Positions 16,977-31,757 of a stretch of DNA of 37,496 nt are shown piece after piece; positions within the stretch are counted from its first letter, which is position 1, and every line of letters begins with the position of its first letter. The stretch covers positions 1-37,496 of the forward strand of contig JAKLJM010000003.1 in the NCBI GenBank assembly GCA_023151145.1. Direction: 5' to 3'. The position numbers and the translations under genes are program-made. This stretch comes from Bacteriovoracaceae bacterium. Lineage in GTDB: Bacteria > Bdellovibrionota > Bacteriovoracia > Bacteriovoracales > Bacteriovoracaceae. A model generated the notes under the pieces. That model saw only the letters and a list, made by a program, of their open reading frames with translations, had not been told where the DNA came from and searched no databases.

Positions 16977-17774
16977 GTGAAAACTTCATACCTTAAAATT
17001 ATTATTTTTCTCTTCCTTCTTATTTCCTTTACCACTAAAGCAGACACGGCGACGCCATTAAAATTAGTTACAGGTGAAATGCCGCCTTTTGTAGGAAAAG
17101 ACCTCCCACAGAAAGGTGCTATGAGTGAAGTCGTTTCCAAAGCTTTTATGAAATTAAATATTCCTATCGATATTGAATTTAGACCATGGGCCAGAGGGTA
17201 TAGTGAAACCAAAGAAAATATTTTTTTTGGAACATTCCCTTATGTGAAAACTTCTGGGCGTGAAAAAGATTTTTATTTTTCTACTCCTATTTATGTCACA
17301 AAGCCTAAATTATTTATTCGTTCGGATTTAAACACTCGCAATAAGATAGCAAATCTTTCACAACTTAAAGAACTGCGCTTATGTTCTCCCATTGGCTTTG
17401 CTGTTAATAAAGATTTAATTGAAAAATTTCCACACTTAGAAAAAAATCACTTAGAGCCTCTTGATTTAGCGAGTTGTGCACTAATGCTTTCACAGAAACG
17501 TGCTGATTATTTTATCGTTAACACCGATCAGGGGCGTGCTGCTTTAAAAAAGGTTAATATTGAAAAAGAAATTCACATTATTGATTTGGGCTTAAGAACA
17601 AATGAGTATTATCTTATTGTGCCTAAAACGAATAAAAATGCTCTGAGTGTTTTGAATCAGTTTAATGCTGAAATTATCAAAATGAAAAAATCAGGTGAAG
17701 TTCAAAATATTTTGCGTCAACATTTTTCAAAACATTTTATGGACTCAGAAGTGATCGAATTGGCAGGTTTTTAA
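16977..17774 (+). CDS. Orphan periplasmic solute-binding protein, family 3
   Basis: Signal peptide, GEMPPF, PWARG, FYFSTP, RADY. Confidence 0.85.
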   Translation: MKTSYLKIIIFLFLLISFTTKADTATPLKLVTGEMPPFVGKDLPQKGAMSEVVSKAFMKLNIPIDIEFRPWARGYSETKENIFFGTFPYVKTSGREKDFYFSTPIYVTKPKLFIRSDLNTRNKIANLSQLKELRLCSPIGFAVNKDLIEKFPHLEKNHLEPLDLASCALMLSQKRADYFIVNTDQGRAALKKVNIEKEIHIIDLGLRTNEYYLIVPKTNKNALSVLNQFNAEIIKMKKSGEVQNILRQHFSKHFMDSEVIELAGF

Positions 17775-17790
17775 TTTTTGAATGAGAAAT

Positions 17791-17818
17791 AAAAAAGGGG
17801 AGAATTTCTTCTCCCCCC
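17791..17818 (-). terminator. Intrinsic terminator of peptide-1 mRNA
   Basis: Minus strand GGGGAGAA-gaaa-TTCTCCCC-TTTTTT, just after the TAG. Confidence 0.85.
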
Positions 17819-17823
17819 AAATA

Positions 17824-17913
17824 CTAGAACCACTCCATTAACAATTTTAAAACAGTTGTTAGCAGTTTTAAAATCTGGATAATAATTTCTAGCACTTTCA
17901 ATGCTTTGAGCAT
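17824..17913 (-). CDS. 29-aa amphipathic peptide MLKALKVLEIIIQILKLLTTVLKLLMEWF, putative type I toxin (TisB/DinQ-like)
   Basis: GGAGG 5 nt before the ATG; 90-nt ORF; paralogue of identical length with synonymous/conservative changes; terminator follows the stop. Confidence 0.82.
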   Translation of the reverse strand: MLKALKVLEIIIQILKLLTTVLKLLMEWF

Positions 17914-17960
17914 CCTTGCCTCCAGAAGATCGCCTTCATTGGCGTAAGGAGCTCACCGCT

Positions 17961-17988
17961 TTGATCTTATTTATAAATGTGATAACAT
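17961..17988 (+). promoter_or_regulatory. sigma70-like promoter of sRNA-1
   Basis: TTGATC-N16-TAACAT with extended -10 TG; same position in copy 2. Confidence 0.6.
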
Positions 17989-17993
17989 TAACT

Positions 17994-18069
17994 ACCCCCA
18001 AATACAGGTTTGTTAGACCTGCGGGAATTTTCAATGCTTGAAGACCCCTCTTATCACGAGGGGTTTTTT
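17994..18069 (+). ncRNA. Putative antitoxin sRNA-1 (~75 nt; 5' end inferred)
   Basis: Bounded by a promoter and terminator ACCCCTC/GAGGGGT-TTTTT; internal hairpin CAGGT/ACCTG; two 11-nt segments complementary to the peptide-1 mRNA. Confidence 0.72.
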
Positions 18070-18161
18070 ATTTTCTTTTTTTTTTTAATATTTTGGTAAT
18101 TTTTTTCTCTTATGAAATCAAATAATCGAATTGGTAGGGATTTAATTTTTTAATGTGAAAT

Positions 18162-18189
18162 AAAAAAGGGGAGAATTTCTTCTCCCCCC
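18162..18189 (-). terminator. Intrinsic terminator of peptide-2 mRNA
   Basis: Identical to 17791-17818. Confidence 0.85.
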
Positions 18190-18194
18190 AAATC

Positions 18195-18284
18195 CTAGAA
18201 ATTAGCTTTTAACAGTCTTAAAATTATTACTAGTAATTTTAAGACCAGAACTAACTGCTCTAAGATTTTTAATGCCTTAAGCAT
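18195..18284 (-). CDS. 29-aa amphipathic peptide MLKALKILEQLVLVLKLLVIILRLLKANF, putative type I toxin
   Basis: GGAGGCAAGG-ATG, 90-nt ORF, 16/29 identical to peptide 1. Confidence 0.82.
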   Translation of the reverse strand: MLKALKILEQLVLVLKLLVIILRLLKANF

Positions 18285-18330
18285 CCTTGCCTCCGTAGAT
18301 TAGCCTTCAGTGGCCATAGGAGCTCTCGGC

Positions 18331-18358
18331 TTGAAAAAAATGATAAAAGTGCTAGAAT
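18331..18358 (+). promoter_or_regulatory. sigma70-like promoter of sRNA-2
   Basis: TTGAAA-N16-TAGAAT with extended -10 TG. Confidence 0.65.
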
Positions 18359-18364
18359 TAGTTA

Positions 18365-18440
18365 TCCCCTAAGTCCAGGTTTACTAGACCTATTAGGAGA
18401 TTTTTAATGCCTAAACCCCTCTTACCACGAGGGGTTTTTT
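18365..18440 (+). ncRNA. Putative antitoxin sRNA-2 (~75 nt; 5' end inferred)
   Basis: Promoter and terminator bound it; hairpin CCTAA..AGGT/ACCT..TTAGG; 15-nt perfect and 11-nt G:U-containing complementarity to peptide-2 mRNA. Confidence 0.72.
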
Positions 18441-18507
18441 ATTTTCAACAGTGTTGTCTTTTTGTCTTAGGACTATTTCTGAATTGAAATTTTTGGTTGA
18501 TATTGAA

Positions 18508-18996
18508 TTAGCTCTGAAAAAATTTTTGAAAATAATCAGATCCATAATTAATAAATTTATTTTCAAAAATCATTTTTTGAATTTTATCTTGGCTAGCCCA
18601 GTTGATTTCACTCACATCTTCTGGGCAAATAATTGTTTCTGAAAGAGAAACATCCATCTGAGTTACATAAATGTCAGTGTGTTCATTTTTACCAAGTTCA
18701 GAAAATAGAAGTTGAGTTTTGTTAGGATTGATTTTTAGCCCGATTTCTTCACCTGTTTCTCTAATAATTGCTGTTAGGCTATCTTCTCCTGCATGTGCTG
18801 AATCACCTGTTGTTGCCCAAAAACCGGGCATCCAATTTAGGGTTTCTGATCTTCGTTGAATTAGATATTCATTTTTGGAATTGATGATCCATATGTGAAC
18901 GACTTAGTGAAATTCACCTTCACTTAATTTTTCAGATCGCTTTATCGTGCGACCTGTTTTGGTTCGATCTTTATTATAAATATCCCAAATTTCCAT
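18508..18996 (-). pseudogene. NUDIX hydrolase (IDI-like) with an in-frame TAA at codon 31
   Basis: MEIWDIYNKDRTKTG...GEFH*VVHIWIIN...LIQRRS...PGFW...GED..AIIRETGEEIG; stop at 18904-18906. Confidence 0.82.
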
Positions 18997-19023: not shown

Positions 19024-19090
19024 AAAAAAGCCCCGCAATTGCGAGGCTTTCATTTTTAATTTTTTTTGATCAGAAAAAGTGGCGGGAGCG
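19024..19090. repeat. att direct repeat, island end distal to the tRNA: displaced tRNA-Asp 3' end plus terminator
   Basis: AAAAAAGCCCCGCAATTGCGAGGCTTTCATT...TTTTTGATCAGAAAAAGTGGCGGGAGCG, near-identical to 31691-31757. Confidence 0.92.
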
Positions 19091-22946: not shown

Positions 22947-24857
22947 ATGGCAAAAAGTAAATACACGATAAACGATATGCACAAGATTGCAAAATCTCAT
23001 AAAGGGGAGTGTCTATCTTCAACGTATGTCAATTCAACCACAAAACTTAGATGGAAGTGCAAGAACGGCCATGAGTGGGATCAAATACCTGGGCATATCT
23101 TAAGAGGTGTATGGTGCAGATTATGTTCATACAAAAACCTATCAGAATTAAAAAGAACCAGCATTGAAGAGATACAATTATTGGCAAAAAAATTTGGAGG
23201 AAAGTTCACTGATTCAACTTTTAACGGAATGGGACATTCGGTAACTTGGGAGTGTGCCGTTGGACATTCTTTTAAAAAATCTGCTCAGTCAGTTCAAAAT
23301 GGTCGCTGGTGCCCTTATTGTAATCAAAACATAGGCGAGTCGATAACTAGAGTTTTCTTTGAAACAACATTTGAAAAAGAATTTCCAAAAGTCCGCCCAG
23401 AATGGCTTAGAAATACAAACGGGGCAAAACTTGAACTCGACGGTTATTGTGAAGAGTTGCAAATAGCATTTGAGCATCAGGGAACTCAACATCACTCGTT
23501 TAAAGGAAGATTTTACAAAGAAACGAAAGAACTAAATCAGCGATTAGTGATTGATAAGTTGAAAAGAAAAATATGCAAACAACGTGGTGTTATTTTAATA
23601 GAAATACCAGAAATACCAACAAAGCTTAGAATTACAGATTTAGGGAAATATGTAGAAGATTGTTTAAGGGATAAAGGATTTGCAGTAAAAAATTATAACT
23701 TTACAAGGGATATTGATTACGCACTTGCCTATAGCGAAAACTCTTCAACGAAAATAGAAGAGTTAAAAAAGATAGCAATAAGTAAAAAGGGAAAACTTTT
23801 AAGTCGCCAATATTTAGGCAGTACAATCCCATTACAATGGCAATGTTCTGAAAGACATATATGGAAGTCTCCTCCTTCATATATAAAAAATGGTAATTGG
23901 TGTCCAGTGTGTGCCAGACATCATTTGACTATTGATGATGTTAAATTAATAGCTAAAAAAATGAATGGAACACTTTTAGATTCTATATACAATGGCATGG
24001 CCTATAAATATAAATGGCAATGTGAAAAAGGACATGTTTGGAAAGCGGTTGCATCTTCAGTTGCTCAAGGATCATGGTGTCCTCGATGTGCTTTAGATCG
24101 TAATGGTGAACAAAGAAGAACTCCGATTGAAAAAATTCTTAAAATAGTTTCTGAAAAAGGTGGCCAACTTGTTTCTGAAAATTATGGAAGAAGTTCGGAC
24201 AAATATATATGGGAATGTGCTAAAAAGCATAGATGGGTAACTACAGCCGAAGTAATATTGCGTGGAAGCTGGTGTTCAGAATGTTCAAAAACAAAAAAAT
24301 ATACTCTTGATGATATGATAATGGTTGCTAAAAAAATGAAAGGCCAATGTATTTCAAAAAAATACTCAGGGGTAAAGAGTAAACTTCATTGGCAATGTTC
24401 AGAAGGGCACAAGTGGAAAACTACACCTGATACTATTATCAATGGCGGTTCGTGGTGTCCTTTTTGTTCTACAATTTCTGGAAAAAGCAAATCTAAAGGA
24501 AATCTTGAAGAATATAAAAAGATTGCAGAAAGTCGAAATGGTAAATGCCTTTCAAATAAATATAATAATAGTAAGTCGAAATTAATTTTTGAATGCGGAC
24601 AACAACATCAATGGGAAGCTTTGCCTGGTCATATAAAGAAAGGGTCTTGGTGTCCTGTGTGTGCCAAGACGGCACCTTTAACTATAGATGAAATGCATAG
24701 TTTGGCTAAAAAAAAGCAAGGCGTTTGCTTGTCAAAGAAATATATAAATTCTACTACTAAGCTAAAATGGAAGTGCCGTTTAGGACATTCTTGGAGTGCT
24801 TCACCTGCAAAAATTAAGCTCGGTCAGTGGTGCCCTGTTTGTAGAGGTAAAAAATGA
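22947..24857 (+). CDS. Zn-ribbon repeat protein (8 x CxxxHx[WF]...WCxxC) with an embedded Vsr/PD-(D/E)xK-like endonuclease domain
   Basis: 2 repeats, then GE...LELDGYCEELQIAFEHQGTQH...DKLKR...LIEIP, then 6 repeats. Confidence 0.85.
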   Translation: MAKSKYTINDMHKIAKSHKGECLSSTYVNSTTKLRWKCKNGHEWDQIPGHILRGVWCRLCSYKNLSELKRTSIEEIQLLAKKFGGKFTDSTFNGMGHSVTWECAVGHSFKKSAQSVQNGRWCPYCNQNIGESITRVFFETTFEKEFPKVRPEWLRNTNGAKLELDGYCEELQIAFEHQGTQHHSFKGRFYKETKELNQRLVIDKLKRKICKQRGVILIEIPEIPTKLRITDLGKYVEDCLRDKGFAVKNYNFTRDIDYALAYSENSSTKIEELKKIAISKKGKLLSRQYLGSTIPLQWQCSERHIWKSPPSYIKNGNWCPVCARHHLTIDDVKLIAKKMNGTLLDSIYNGMAYKYKWQCEKGHVWKAVASSVAQGSWCPRCALDRNGEQRRTPIEKILKIVSEKGGQLVSENYGRSSDKYIWECAKKHRWVTTAEVILRGSWCSECSKTKKYTLDDMIMVAKKMKGQCISKKYSGVKSKLHWQCSEGHKWKTTPDTIINGGSWCPFCSTISGKSKSKGNLEEYKKIAESRNGKCLSNKYNNSKSKLIFECGQQHQWEALPGHIKKGSWCPVCAKTAPLTIDEMHSLAKKKQGVCLSKKYINSTTKLKWKCRLGHSWSASPAKIKLGQWCPVCRGKK

Positions 24858-28712: not shown

Positions 28713-29435
28713 TCATTTGCCTAAGATCTTATTCATAGTTCGGTATAAAGAAATTTTAATACGATCTCTTTCTAGTAAACCGACTACCGTTGATGGTAAA
28801 AAACTTATTGAATTTGCATTTAGTATTTTTGATTTTTCCTTTTCGCTTAAGAAAGGATTGATAAAATTCTTTTGTCCAGCCGCTTCTGAAGCACCACCAA
28901 AACCACCAATAACATAGGACGGGATTCGATGTTTTTCAGCTATTGTTAATTCCTCGGGAACACCGGGTTTTATTTGAGTATTGGGGTGAAGCTTACCACC
29001 TATTGATAGAATACAATTAGCATCATAGATCATTTTTTCACGTAAATTTCTAAGACTATTATTTCTAGCAATAGGATCATTATGGTCTTTACTGTTTTGA
29101 TAGCTTGGTATTTCAATTATGGTGGAGTAGGCATCATGTTTTTTGATGTCACCTTGTCCCCACATAGCGGAAACATATAGTTTAAGTTGTGATTTATTTT
29201 GTGCAAAATTTTTTGCTTGTTCTGCAACAATTGGTGTGAATAGTGGATGAGAGCCGTGAATAATGGTACCTCCTTTTGCAAATATCATTGCTGAGAAATA
29301 TGAGACAAATTCTAGTATGTCCTGGTCAATTAAGGGGTGTGGCCAATATTCGTTTTCTGGAATTGCACCAGATAGCCAAACCTTAATGGATTTCAAGTTT
29401 TTTTGAGGACGAAATTTTTTATATAGGTATGTCAT
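28713..29435 (-). CDS. Stand-alone SLOG-superfamily protein (TIR-associated type)
   Basis: LSGAIP, IIHGSHP, LREKM, SIGG, PGVPEE, GGFGGA. Confidence 0.85.
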   Translation of the reverse strand: MTYLYKKFRPQKNLKSIKVWLSGAIPENEYWPHPLIDQDILEFVSYFSAMIFAKGGTIIHGSHPLFTPIVAEQAKNFAQNKSQLKLYVSAMWGQGDIKKHDAYSTIIEIPSYQNSKDHNDPIARNNSLRNLREKMIYDANCILSIGGKLHPNTQIKPGVPEELTIAEKHRIPSYVIGGFGGASEAAGQKNFINPFLSEKEKSKILNANSISFLPSTVVGLLERDRIKISLYRTMNKILGK

Positions 29436-30604
29436 TGGTCTAAAAACTCTTCAATTTGCTCGTGATGTAAAATAATAATGTTGGAAACAGCTATTTCTGG
29501 AATCTCATTTAAGATTTCATCTATCTCATTTTCAGAACGAGGTTTACCATCGTATATAAAGATATTTTCATTGCGTCTTACATTTAAACCACGAGTATAA
29601 ATAATAAAGTTATTTATAAAAGTATTGTGGATTCCGTCATAGAGGGGGCAATGTGACAGTAGTGTTCGCCAGTCTTTGAATTTTCTTGCTTTTTTAGATT
29701 CAAAAAGTAGTTTAACCTGATCTAGAGTTGACCAGGTATAGCCCTTATCCCTAAACTTATTTGCAACTTCAAATGGGACATTTTTTTTTCTTTTATAAAC
29801 ATCTGCTAAAATTTTAAAAATATCATCAATTATTTCATCAAAATTATTTAGTTGAACGTCAGACTGAGAATATCTATTGAGTGTTTGAAGTTTTCGAAAG
29901 TGAGATCCTTTTTTACCATCATTTCTTATGCAAAGAGGGAGTACCGGAACAAGGTGAGCATGGGCATGATCAATTTCATGGTGAACCCATTTAGAATAAT
30001 CAGCCTCTGGAGTATCAAGTAATAGGACGAGATTAGATTGGATGATCGCCTTGTTAATTTGTTCTTGTACATCCAAACCAATAGTCAAATTTCCTTCATG
30101 GTCTTCGTCTCTATCATCATCTCGCCAGACTTTAAAACCTATATATTGCAGTATGGAAGACAAGGCTATAGCAATATCTTTACCATCTGTAACTCTGTAT
30201 GAGATAAAAATTTGATTATCTTTCGGCAGAATCTTCAATCCAAGGAATGCTCCGACTCGATTTGCTAAGTTATTTTCCCAGTTCTTTTGATTTGTGGAAT
30301 GAGATTTTATTTTTGAAAGTGGTTCATTCGAAATATATTTTTTGTCACTAAATGAAATGGGTATAATTACGGCATTTTTGTCAAAATATGCTTGAAATTT
30401 TATGGCTACGCTTAGAATTTGTTCGTCAATGTTATCATTGTTAAAACAAATTAAAAGGATTGAATTAATATCAAACTGAGTTACCTCACAGGTGACGGGA
30501 TTGACTTTCTCAAAACTAAGTTCAGAATAGCCGTTTTGTAAAACTGAAATGATACTGTTTATTTGATTATCATTGCAGTCATTATTTAAAATTAACACAT
30601 TCAT
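29432..30604 (-). CDS. Long TIR-domain protein
   Basis: IFISYRVTDG, VWRD, VLLLDTP, SKWVHHEI (catalytic Glu). Confidence 0.87.
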   Translation of the reverse strand: MNVLILNNDCNDNQINSIISVLQNGYSELSFEKVNPVTCEVTQFDINSILLICFNNDNIDEQILSVAIKFQAYFDKNAVIIPISFSDKKYISNEPLSKIKSHSTNQKNWENNLANRVGAFLGLKILPKDNQIFISYRVTDGKDIAIALSSILQYIGFKVWRDDDRDEDHEGNLTIGLDVQEQINKAIIQSNLVLLLDTPEADYSKWVHHEIDHAHAHLVPVLPLCIRNDGKKGSHFRKLQTLNRYSQSDVQLNNFDEIIDDIFKILADVYKRKKNVPFEVANKFRDKGYTWSTLDQVKLLFESKKARKFKDWRTLLSHCPLYDGIHNTFINNFIIYTRGLNVRRNENIFIYDGKPRSENEIDEILNEIPEIAVSNIIILHHEQIEEFLDQ

Positions 30605-30607
30605 TTT

Positions 30608-31105
30608 TTAATTTTTACTTCTTATCTTAATTGCTTCATCTATCCATCCCGAAATATTATCAGAAATCCATGCATAAACTTCTTTGCTATCGTAACTGAG
30701 AGGAGGTGAATGTAGTTTTACAATTGTTGAAAGTTTTTTGTCTCCAATGGTAAACCCATCAAAGGGGTTTGGACCAAGGCTACAGGTTTTGCTATCTTTG
30801 TCTTTTAATCCGTTTATAGCTATTCCAACTAGGCCTTTGTTATTATTCCAGGCTTTTTCTATTTCTTTTTTAACCCATTTGCGATTAGCCGTGTCTGTTC
30901 CAACCAGAACAACGACACATTCTTTATTTTTCATCTCTAGGTCTATCCAATTTTCAATGGCCTTATCTCCATTTTTCTTAACCTCTTCCCATTTATTTGC
31001 AGTGACAGGCTCGTTGCCTTCAATTGTTCCTATTTGTCTAACCGTTTGTACTCGCCAAACATCATTATCAAAATGAAAGCTGTAAAAAATTTTTTTCTTT
31101 GCCAT
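30608..31105 (-). CDS. ThsB-like TIR protein
   Basis: FYSFHFDND..R, WEEV, VVLVG..TA.RKWV..EI; GAGGA RBS before ATG 31105. Confidence 0.9.
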   Translation of the reverse strand: MAKKKIFYSFHFDNDVWRVQTVRQIGTIEGNEPVTANKWEEVKKNGDKAIENWIDLEMKNKECVVVLVGTDTANRKWVKKEIEKAWNNNKGLVGIAINGLKDKDSKTCSLGPNPFDGFTIGDKKLSTIVKLHSPPLSYDSKEVYAWISDNISGWIDEAIKIRSKN

Positions 31106-31136
31106 TACTTTATCCTCTTGTAAAAAAAACAATCAA

Positions 31137-31511
31137 CTATTTCAAAATATTTTTTAGATTTTCCCAATCCCACTTATATAGAGTACCTGCATCTGGAACT
31201 CTCGTATAATCGCCATCTTTGTAACCAATGATTTGAACGATTTTTTTGTTATGCTTGCGAGCCATAGCTACTTCTTTCAAGACGCCTGAAGCTTTATGAG
31301 TCCCTTTGCCAACCATTACAATGACTAAGTCTGATGCTTTTATTTTGGCTTCTGCCTTTTCTTCCCAGTCTTTTTCAGGAGCTGCTTCTTTGAGTGAGCA
31401 ATCAAAAATTTCAAAAGGAGAATCTGAATTTTTTGCTTGTTGAAGTAAAAATTCTTTTAAAACTTTATCGTTATCAAAATCAAAACTTATAAAAGCCTTA
31501 GTTTTTGCCAT
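31137..31511 (-). CDS. Short ThsB/MTH538-like TIR protein
   Basis: AFISFDFDND, DCSLKE, VIVMVG..TH.A.GV.KEV. Confidence 0.87.
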   Translation of the reverse strand: MAKTKAFISFDFDNDKVLKEFLLQQAKNSDSPFEIFDCSLKEAAPEKDWEEKAEAKIKASDLVIVMVGKGTHKASGVLKEVAMARKHNKKIVQIIGYKDGDYTRVPDAGTLYKWDWENLKNILK

Positions 31512-31690: not shown

Positions 31691-31757
31691 AAAAAAGCCC
31701 CGCAATTGCGAGGCTTTCATTCTTTTAATTTTTTGATCAGAAAAAGTGGCGGGAGCG
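31691..31757. repeat. att direct repeat, tRNA-proximal; includes the tRNA terminator hairpin
   Basis: Matches 19024-19090; AAAGCCCCGC-AATT-GCGAGGCTTT hairpin with a T-tract on the minus strand. Confidence 0.92.

Follow-up and report, generated by a model that had tools for sequence, protein, structure and literature searches.

Tandem peptide and small RNA cassettes in Bacteriovoracaceae as a candidate type I toxin-antitoxin family with three-site pairing

The window analysed here is the whole 37,496-nucleotide (nt) stretch of contig JAKLJM010000003.1 (assembly GCA_023151145.1) from a Bacteriovoracaceae bacterium. Between a solute-binding-protein gene and a NUDIX gene with an in-frame stop, it carries two tandem homologous cassettes, each with a 29-codon open reading frame (ORF) on the minus strand and a predicted small RNA (sRNA) gene on the plus strand, which are considered here as candidate type I toxin-antitoxin (TA) modules. 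The ORFs, at 17824–17913 and 18195–18284, encode the two peptides quoted in a preliminary description of this DNA, and both have the GGAGG ribosome binding site given there, 6 nt before the ATG. That description placed the cassettes at 17781..18446. The cassettes are real, but the repeated region is larger (17749–18490): a 371-bp tandem duplication, 17749–18119 and 18120–18490, comprises both. The final codons of the solute-binding-protein gene upstream fall within the unit, as does a conserved element at the right-hand end. The two terminators and the divergent plus-strand promoter described for each cassette were found in each copy. One terminator lies right after the peptide stop codon (17795–17818 and 18166–18189) and the second ends the sRNA (18040–18068 and 18413–18437); terminator-like sites in the region number 16, compared to 1.4 ± 1.4 in shuffled sequences. 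The plus-strand RNA, put earlier at about 75 nt, is predicted from promoter, terminator and co-variation to be about 78 nt. The features, with the sRNA segments termed A, B and C and their predicted targets A′, B′ and C′, are as follows.

17749..18119, cassette copy 1 (duplication unit)
18120..18490, cassette copy 2 (duplication unit)
17787..17818, minus strand, intrinsic terminator of peptide mRNA 1, with stem covariation
17814..17824, minus strand, target site A′ of copy 1 (stop-codon end and terminator 5′ arm)
17824..17913, minus strand, ORF 1 for a 29-amino acid (aa) hydrophobic peptide, putative toxin, predicted to fold as one long hairpin
17856..17862, minus strand, target site B′ of copy 1, a 7-nt YUNR loop at codons 18–20
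17896..17906, minus strand, core of target site C′ of copy 1, codons 3–6 (family range, codons 2–7)
17919..17923, minus strand, Shine-Dalgarno (SD) sequence GGAGG of copy 1, from the sequence
17931..17944, minus strand, leader hairpin of copy 1 with near-invariant AAUGAA loop
17948..17959, minus strand, leader 5′ arm of copy 1, inverted repeat of the SD/codons 2–4 region
17961..17988, plus strand, sRNA 1 promoter, predicted sigma70 extended −10, TTGAWN-16-TGnTAnnnT
17994..18071, plus strand, predicted antitoxin sRNA 1 (A 17995–18005, loop B 18010–18016, C 18029–18039, terminator)
18104..18117, minus strand, upstream element TTCA-N5-GAAA of copy 1, likely part of the peptide-gene promoter or operator
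18158..18189, minus strand, intrinsic terminator of peptide mRNA 2
18185..18195, minus strand, target site A′ of copy 2
18195..18284, minus strand, ORF 2 for a 29-aa hydrophobic peptide, putative toxin
18227..18233, minus strand, target site B′ loop of copy 2 (stem arms 18215–18229 and 18231–18245)
18263..18280, minus strand, target site C′ of copy 2
18290..18294, minus strand, SD sequence GGAGG of copy 2, from the sequence
18302..18330, minus strand, leader hairpin and 5′ arm of copy 2
18331..18358, plus strand, sRNA 2 promoter, predicted, TTGAAA-16-TAGAAT with TG
18364..18442, plus strand, predicted antitoxin sRNA 2 (A 18366–18376, loop B 18381–18387, C 18398–18415, terminator)
18476..18489, minus strand, upstream element of copy 2

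A 22-nt inverted similarity (86%) between 17877–17898, at the ORF 1 start, and 18346–18367, in the sRNA 2 promoter, has no counterpart at the copy 1 promoter and is probably due to chance.

Ninety-two profile hits cover at least 60% of the cassette. Two were not parsed (L043 and L141) and the rest give 54 distinct sequences, four of which were dropped for frameshifts or early stops. The 50 intact cassettes analysed come from Bacteriovoracaceae, and the window's own genome holds eight intact cassettes and two relics. One cassette, L034, enters the cognate tests and the tree but not the count of G·U pairs or the consensus folds.

The peptide is 27–30 aa long across the family, SD spacing is fixed among intact cassettes, and TAG, TAA and TGA all serve as stop codons. 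The ratio of nonsynonymous to synonymous substitution is 0.26 in frame, compared to 0.50 and 1.69 for the other sense frames; the antisense frame that shares third positions gives 0.33. The substitution pattern indicates that the peptide ORF is under coding selection. Mean hydropathy (GRAVY) is 1.54 with a net charge of +3, and TisB, ShoB and DinQ have GRAVY values of 1.6–1.9. An AlphaFold model of a 30-aa member shows a single helix with a mean confidence (pLDDT) of 93.7. Of the heptad-spaced charges first described, Lys16 is near-invariant (49/50), but Glu9 and Lys/Arg23 are each found in just 35/50 peptides.

No known peptide family scored above cut-off in Pfam-type profile searches, and a PDB search gave no match. 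The window peptide scores 14.9 bits with the TisB models (PF13939/TIGR04459), which is below the cut-off of 25, and the best E-values of the TisB models against 33 family members are 0.009 and 0.042. With a hidden Markov model (HMM) of the peptide family, TisB scores 4.0 bits, a value equalled by 33 of 500 shuffled sequences, and ShoB and DinQ score no better; hhalign gives TisB and the peptide family a probability of 14%. Homology to TisB, ShoB or DinQ was rejected, the scores not being above those of shuffled sequences, and on this evidence the likeness to TisB appears compositional. Melittin gives sub-threshold matches in 3/33 peptides.

All intact copies carry the sequence TTGNNN-16/17-TGnTAnnnT followed after about 78–90 nt by the sRNA terminator. 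Between these, three segments of the strand opposite to the peptide mRNA recur collinearly in the sRNA. Site A is the 5′ end of the sRNA and matches the stop codon and the terminator 5′ arm of the mRNA; site B is the sRNA hairpin loop, which matches the 7-nt loop at codons 18–20; and site C matches codons 2–7. Loop B is exact in 47/50 cognate pairs compared to 35% of non-cognate pairs. Duplex energies at site C are −22.4 kcal/mol for cognate and −10.8 kcal/mol for non-cognate pairs, an approximately twofold stability, and at site A are −20.1 and −13.0 kcal/mol, respectively. In the window, each sRNA is a better match for its own mRNA than for that of its neighbour at all three sites.

Changes were mapped on a tree built with the pairing sites masked. 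Loop B changes 13 times on the sRNA side and 12 times on the mRNA side, and the joint total is only 13. At site C there are at least 78 shared changes, compared to 14–27 for shifted columns. Transition mismatches have a polarity: those that are G·U-compatible for plus-strand sRNA with minus-strand mRNA number 37, and those for the opposite orientation 3. Counted by distinct contexts the polarity is 23:3 and at site C alone it is 15:1; there are in addition 18 transversions.

The ORF itself folds as one long hairpin with compensatory changes in its stem beside loop B′. Relative to synonymously resampled sequences, the mean z of this fold is −2.3, and the two window ORFs give −1.3 and −1.7. Loop B′ is predicted to be unpaired with a probability of 0.97 and has the motif YUNR in 49/50 cassettes. 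The YUNR loop fixes the Leu18 codon, which is CTA or CTC in 49/49, whereas Leu17 uses four codons. The consensus fold of the sRNA alignment gave the terminator only, and the loop stem was thus counted directly. In par/Fst a YUNR loop initiates the kissing complex (PMC7472228), and by analogy loop B′ would start a kissing complex here as well. Comparison with Rfam, called for in the preliminary description, was run and gave no covariance-model match at gathering score over the cassettes of the window region and of five further loci.

Decay of the cassettes is one-sided. Twenty-one relics retain the sRNA terminator but have lost the start of peptide translation. Several of them are deletions between repeats, A to A or C to C, and one is an insertion in the leader. 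Only two ORFs without an sRNA loop were found, one lacking the SD and having a mutated upstream element, the other cut from its leader by an insertion; a third ORF fusion without the loop carries a nonsense codon. This one-sided decay would be the outcome expected from addiction.

The upstream element, TTCA-N5-GAAA, is found 46–48 nt past the sRNA terminator in 44/44 of the first-aligned cassettes when a loose pattern is used. Its strict core is present in 46/50 intact copies compared to 8/21 relics; among the remaining relics, one has the motif closer and another has lost the flank. No conserved sigma70 promoter adjoins the leader, and a bivalent sigma70 promoter within the sRNA promoter was rejected because it has no conserved position. 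We infer that the upstream element belongs to the peptide transcription unit, which would place the sRNA gene inside the mRNA leader. The divergent sRNA gene of the preliminary description thus stands in so far as its promoter is on the opposite strand, but not as simple divergence, as the mRNA probably overlaps the sRNA gene.

Co-variation between the leader and codons 2–4 extends as far as the −35 box of the sRNA promoter. Minimum free energy folds pair the SD and the AUG; ensemble predictions put SD accessibility at 0.48 when the leader is included and at 0.38 when it is omitted. Pairing of the upstream element with the leader loop or with site C′ was considered and rejected, there being no co-variation on inspection. 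An upstream ORF starting from the leader-loop AUG was likewise rejected, as the frame is not conserved and copy 2 has CUG.

Control of the cassette by LexA was also considered. A TTACGC-type direct repeat overlaps the lexA and recA promoters in 5/5 genomes (L061–L065, L069–L073) and is probably the LexA box of Bacteriovorax. No full copy of this repeat is present in 44 cassettes, which show incidental half-sites only. The upstream element differs from the LexA direct repeat, and LexA/SOS control was rejected. A genome-wide scan with a position weight matrix for the upstream element returned mostly cassettes (30 intergenic and 134 coding sites at ≥12 bits), and the strict pattern gave one match in one complete relative; a role of the element as a site of a wider regulon was rejected. 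The best match outside a cassette (G000:C231:6706) lies 132 nt before a small ORF that resembles a BrnT-type toxin, possibly at a deleted cassette.

DNA matches to the cassette are present in 24/28 same-genus genomes, some of them as terminator only, and in 0/8 other family genera in that sample. The peptide profile matches 16/25 same-genus genomes, 5/40, 1/2 and 1/1 genomes in three other genera (one of the five being of the sister family described below), and 1/233 genomes outside the family. A pattern scan of GTDB gave 27 loci, 23 of them titled Bacteriovorax, Bacteriovoracaceae or Bacteriovoracales, in agreement with the Bdellovibrionota host first proposed. Two of the 27 are on one contig of a Pseudobdellovibrionaceae metagenome-assembled genome, by transfer or misbinning; the two cassettes there are near-identical to Bacteriovorax types (L148, L134 and L135). 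Two GTDB pattern matches outside Bdellovibrionota and two weak HMM matches were judged chance. A DNA-level search of phage, plasmid and IMG/VR collections gave no cassette match. A search of 50%-representative proteins gave nine matches; eight are the peptide family with upstream extensions, unnamed or labelled hypothetical, and the ninth is a repeat artefact. Among 74 neighbours scanned, no gene is conserved across cassettes. A tRNA gene is present in 10/60 loci, tRNA-His in six of them.

A second peptide family is related to that of the window. A pattern of leader loop, SD and ATG is found in 65/237 family genomes compared to 8 for the reversed pattern, and among fetched loci 56 of 82 distinct matches not of the window type lead to a hydrophobic ORF of 20–32 aa. 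Comparison of this sister family with the window's family by hhalign gives a probability of 68% (E = 5e-5). The upstream element precedes the sister peptides at two fixed distances, with the best site there in 36/56, and scores ≥9 in 25/56 compared to 7/54 controls. There is no sRNA gene between element and peptide, and a divergent promoter occurs in 1/56. Instead, a convergent promoter of the same consensus lies about 50 nt past the stop codon in 27/56 (controls, 2 and 0), a pattern seen in 1/50 of the window's family. Because the order A–B–C is collinear and the promoter is shared, the three-site sRNA may descend from a convergent antisense gene that was copied to a new position and shortened.

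Sister cassettes (L111, L152–L170, L180–L230) are found in other Bacteriovoracaceae genera and encode hydrophobic peptides of 23–27 aa, often in tandem. Their 3′ tail is complementary to the leader loop in 36/56 (control, 6), which suggests 5′–3′ pairing within the sister mRNA. One sister peptide gives E = 4e-4 with the TisB model, and the sister family may thus have remote kinship with TisB. In genomes of genus g32 (L151, L152 and others) a palindrome of about 27 nt, resembling repetitive extragenic palindromes, has many intergenic copies, often beside sister cassettes. A variant, L188 (about 1200–1660), is located beside the transfer-messenger RNA gene and has tandem peptides with an upstream sRNA of about 55 nt that lacks the loop site; this sRNA has only a 19-nt coding-region match (C) and a post-stop match (A), and the upstream element is absent.

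The NUDIX hydrolase gene next to the window cassettes (18508–18996, minus strand) has its in-frame stop at codon 31. A 29-bp direct repeat at 19062–19090 and 31729–31757 overlaps the 3′ end of tRNA-Asp and bounds an island of about 12.7 kb. The island contains an HD-domain gene, IS3-type remains and three TIR-domain (ThsB-like) genes at 29432–31511. Also within it, at 22947–24857 on the plus strand, is a gene for a 636-aa protein with about eight treble-clef zinc-finger repeats (DUF4379).

The module is real and multi-copy, and by membership tests it is not TisB, ShoB, DinQ or Fst/Ldr. The reading that best accounts for the data, as the preliminary description had proposed, is a type I TA-like family in Bdellovibrionota, and what carries it are the three co-varying sites and the one-sided decay. 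We give a probability of roughly 75% to the cassette being an undescribed type I TA module in which the sRNA silences a peptide predicted to damage the inner membrane. In the proposed mechanism, the sRNA would be transcribed from the extended −10 promoter, its loop would kiss the U-turn loop B′, and its free 3′ and 5′ segments would then close onto C′ and A′, which flank the base of the ORF hairpin; that the sRNA is made and pairs in this manner is very probable. Site C′ falls within the footprint of the initiating ribosome, so that pairing would block translation whether or not RNase III cleaves the duplex. The peptide is likely to insert in the membrane as one helix and to be toxic. Loss of the RNA during peptide expression would then be purged, and copies would diverge into mostly insulated pairs. 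With less assurance, though on balance favoured, the mRNA would start near the upstream element, beyond the sRNA terminator, with the sRNA gene within the leader as in hok/sok and ldr/rdl, and the internal sites would let the sRNA also catch a 5′-shortened message.

Several observations weigh against this type I TA reading or parts of it. A search of RNA runs gave matching shares of at most 0.08, as scattered fragments partly from related cassettes, and the runs are probably DNA; at most a few fragments of relatives were obtained, and expression and toxicity are deductions from sequence. In the folding model, loop B of the sRNA has an unpaired probability of just 0.59, and some sRNAs of the window's genome pair equally well with site C of another copy. 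The G·U bias at site A may be partly due to the sRNA's own basal stem. SD accessibility with the leader is not below that of the control without leader. The upstream element is unlike a sigma70 promoter and L188 does without it; its loss in relics may be general decay, and the count at a fixed distance misses the relic with the closer motif. The relics were collected by similarity, and the asymmetry of decay may thus in part reflect ascertainment. Finally, L034 has an intact ORF with a non-cognate sRNA, with a loop mismatch and a C duplex of −12.1 kcal/mol, and four other sRNAs from that genome reach only −11 to −19 on L034. In this locus (1434–1820) a junction within the leader connects the ORF of one subtype with an sRNA from a different subtype, and it could be a natural recombinant or an assembly chimera.

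The alternative that survives best, though unlikely, is an sRNA-gated microprotein, in which the sRNA does pair with the mRNA while the peptide regulates, for example, a membrane transporter or sensor as a small membrane protein without toxicity. The peptide is conserved as a protein, its toxicity is a prediction, and in L034 an intact ORF stands next to a non-matching sRNA, all of which a harmless regulator would allow. However, copy number varies up to eight intact per genome, the copies are scattered with no conserved neighbour, many are dead with the peptide start lost first, and each copy keeps a private RNA key. Less probable again is an effector of attack or defence released on a cue, either a lytic peptide acting within prey or an abortive-infection toxin that is set free once a phage stops transcription of the short-lived sRNA. 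A cationic hydrophobic helix with sub-threshold melittin matches would suit it, as would the tRNA genes at 10/60 loci and the position of the window cassettes, 600 bp from the tRNA-Asp island with its Thoeris-like TIR genes. But the peptide consists entirely of one short helix and lacks a distinct export leader, distribution is patchy with many relics, and defence genes are a minority of the neighbours. The phage variant would fit the type I TA reading as well, the difference being in biological role only.

It is very improbable that the sites are leftovers at the DNA level, their likeness maintained by gene conversion within a small mobile repeat and without RNA–RNA pairing. The repeats do recombine as DNA and produce deletions, but G·U mismatches show a polarity of 37:3 in one strand orientation, a 7-nt site has changed in step at least 12 times, promoter and terminator are conserved, and the ORF is under coding selection. 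An amino-acid attenuator, suggested by a Leu/Ile/Val-rich leader peptide immediately followed by a terminator, can be dismissed, as the next gene is convergent in 28/47 cassettes with flank, including window copy 1, no branched-chain amino-acid biosynthesis family is among the 74 neighbours, and the co-variation of the sRNA would be left unexplained.

If the type I TA reading holds, the family extends the class to predatory bacteria. A wider and more tentative proposal is that of a new antitoxin architecture, in which an ancestral convergent antisense gene would have been copied in front of the toxin gene and shrunk to a 78-nt three-point clamp, holding the hairpin of the coding region by the tip and by the two sides of the base. 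Combined with the sister family and L188, this would be the first type I toxin superfamily of Bdellovibrionota, a series from cis to trans with dozens of largely orthogonal keys. How trans-encoded antitoxins arose can be tested with the sister family. The 50 natural cognate pairs, with their compensatory changes, provide controls for kissing-loop recognition and for insulation between paralogues, and could serve as compact orthogonal translation switches.

Of the features by which type I TA systems are recognised, the cassette has a small coding gene (<60 aa) with a predicted hydrophobic helix and, by sequence comparison, a neighbouring complementary antisense RNA gene. Such systems have been reported from few phyla (PMC12390103 and PMC5367252). 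The preliminary description knew of no characterised type I system in Bdellovibrionota, and our search of full-text literature, which did not extend to T1TAdb/TADB contents, subscription journals or bioRxiv supplements, likewise found none in Bacteriovoracaceae or Bdellovibrio. In at least seven of the eight supplementary files of PMC2887945 (file 3 excluded), the name Bacteriovorax is absent and the count of type I loci from known families is 0 for B. bacteriovorus HD100.

The analogy first drawn with TisB, DinQ and Zor fits in peptide type but not in antitoxin layout, since pairing is in the coding sequence and after the stop rather than in the 5′ untranslated region (UTR). TisB/IstR-1, ShoB/OhsC, DinQ/AgrB and Zor/Orz have hydrophobic helical peptides of 26–29 aa as here. 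In the TisB, ShoB, DinQ and Zor systems the antitoxin gene is also 5′ of the ORF on the other strand with complementarity arising from a repeat, and zor-orz has tandem copies as well. PMC4147584 describes antitoxins of the TisB/ShoB/DinQ type as pairing at one site in a long 5′ UTR. In the E. coli antitoxins pairing lies about 94–123 nt before the AUG, with no more than 7 nt of coding-sequence complementarity. The longest complement of the cassette begins 7 nt into the coding sequence, compared to −94 to −123 in the E. coli TisB group, and the cassette differs further in having three sites, in the coding sequence and after the stop, and no LexA box.

The c4 antisense RNA of phages P1 and P7 has several short boxes that match the message of a nearby small ORF and controls an antirepressor operon. 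The cassette ORF instead ends in its own terminator, and there is no Rfam match at gathering score.

Fst/RNAII, the par locus of pAD1, likewise has multi-site pairing by direct repeats with a kissing start at a YUNR loop, and its copy-specific repeats prevent cross-talk (PMC7472228). The convergent par RNAs end in a common terminator whose loop carries the U-turn, and the SD and start codon lie within the repeats. In the cassettes the sRNA gene is upstream, the ORF itself holds the U-turn loop and the convergent promoter is found in 1/50. The P/D/S/TxxxG motif of Fst/Ldr, as defined in PMC7472228, is present in 0/50 peptides, and Trp, which Fst/Ldr peptides conserve ahead of a charged tail, in only 13/50.

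Hok/Sok and Ldr/Rdl, according to passages of PMC8594479, resemble the cassette in having the antitoxin 5′ of the ORF, probably inside the leader here, and in forming scattered and tandem chromosomal repeats. They differ in full cis complementarity to the leader, and co-varying sites in the coding sequence and 3′ of it are absent from the layouts described there. Profile searches show Hok and Ldr peptides to be unrelated to the cassette peptide. The layout of an upstream antitoxin pairing at three points in coding and post-stop regions is absent from the T1TAdb list in the same passages of PMC8594479. Sib uses two recognition domains, one of them in the coding sequence (PMC4147584). The convergent layout of the Ibs/Sib, TxpA/RatA and MsoT1/MsoA1 type is shared by the sister family (27/56), whereas the antitoxin of the window's family is a separate miniature gene.

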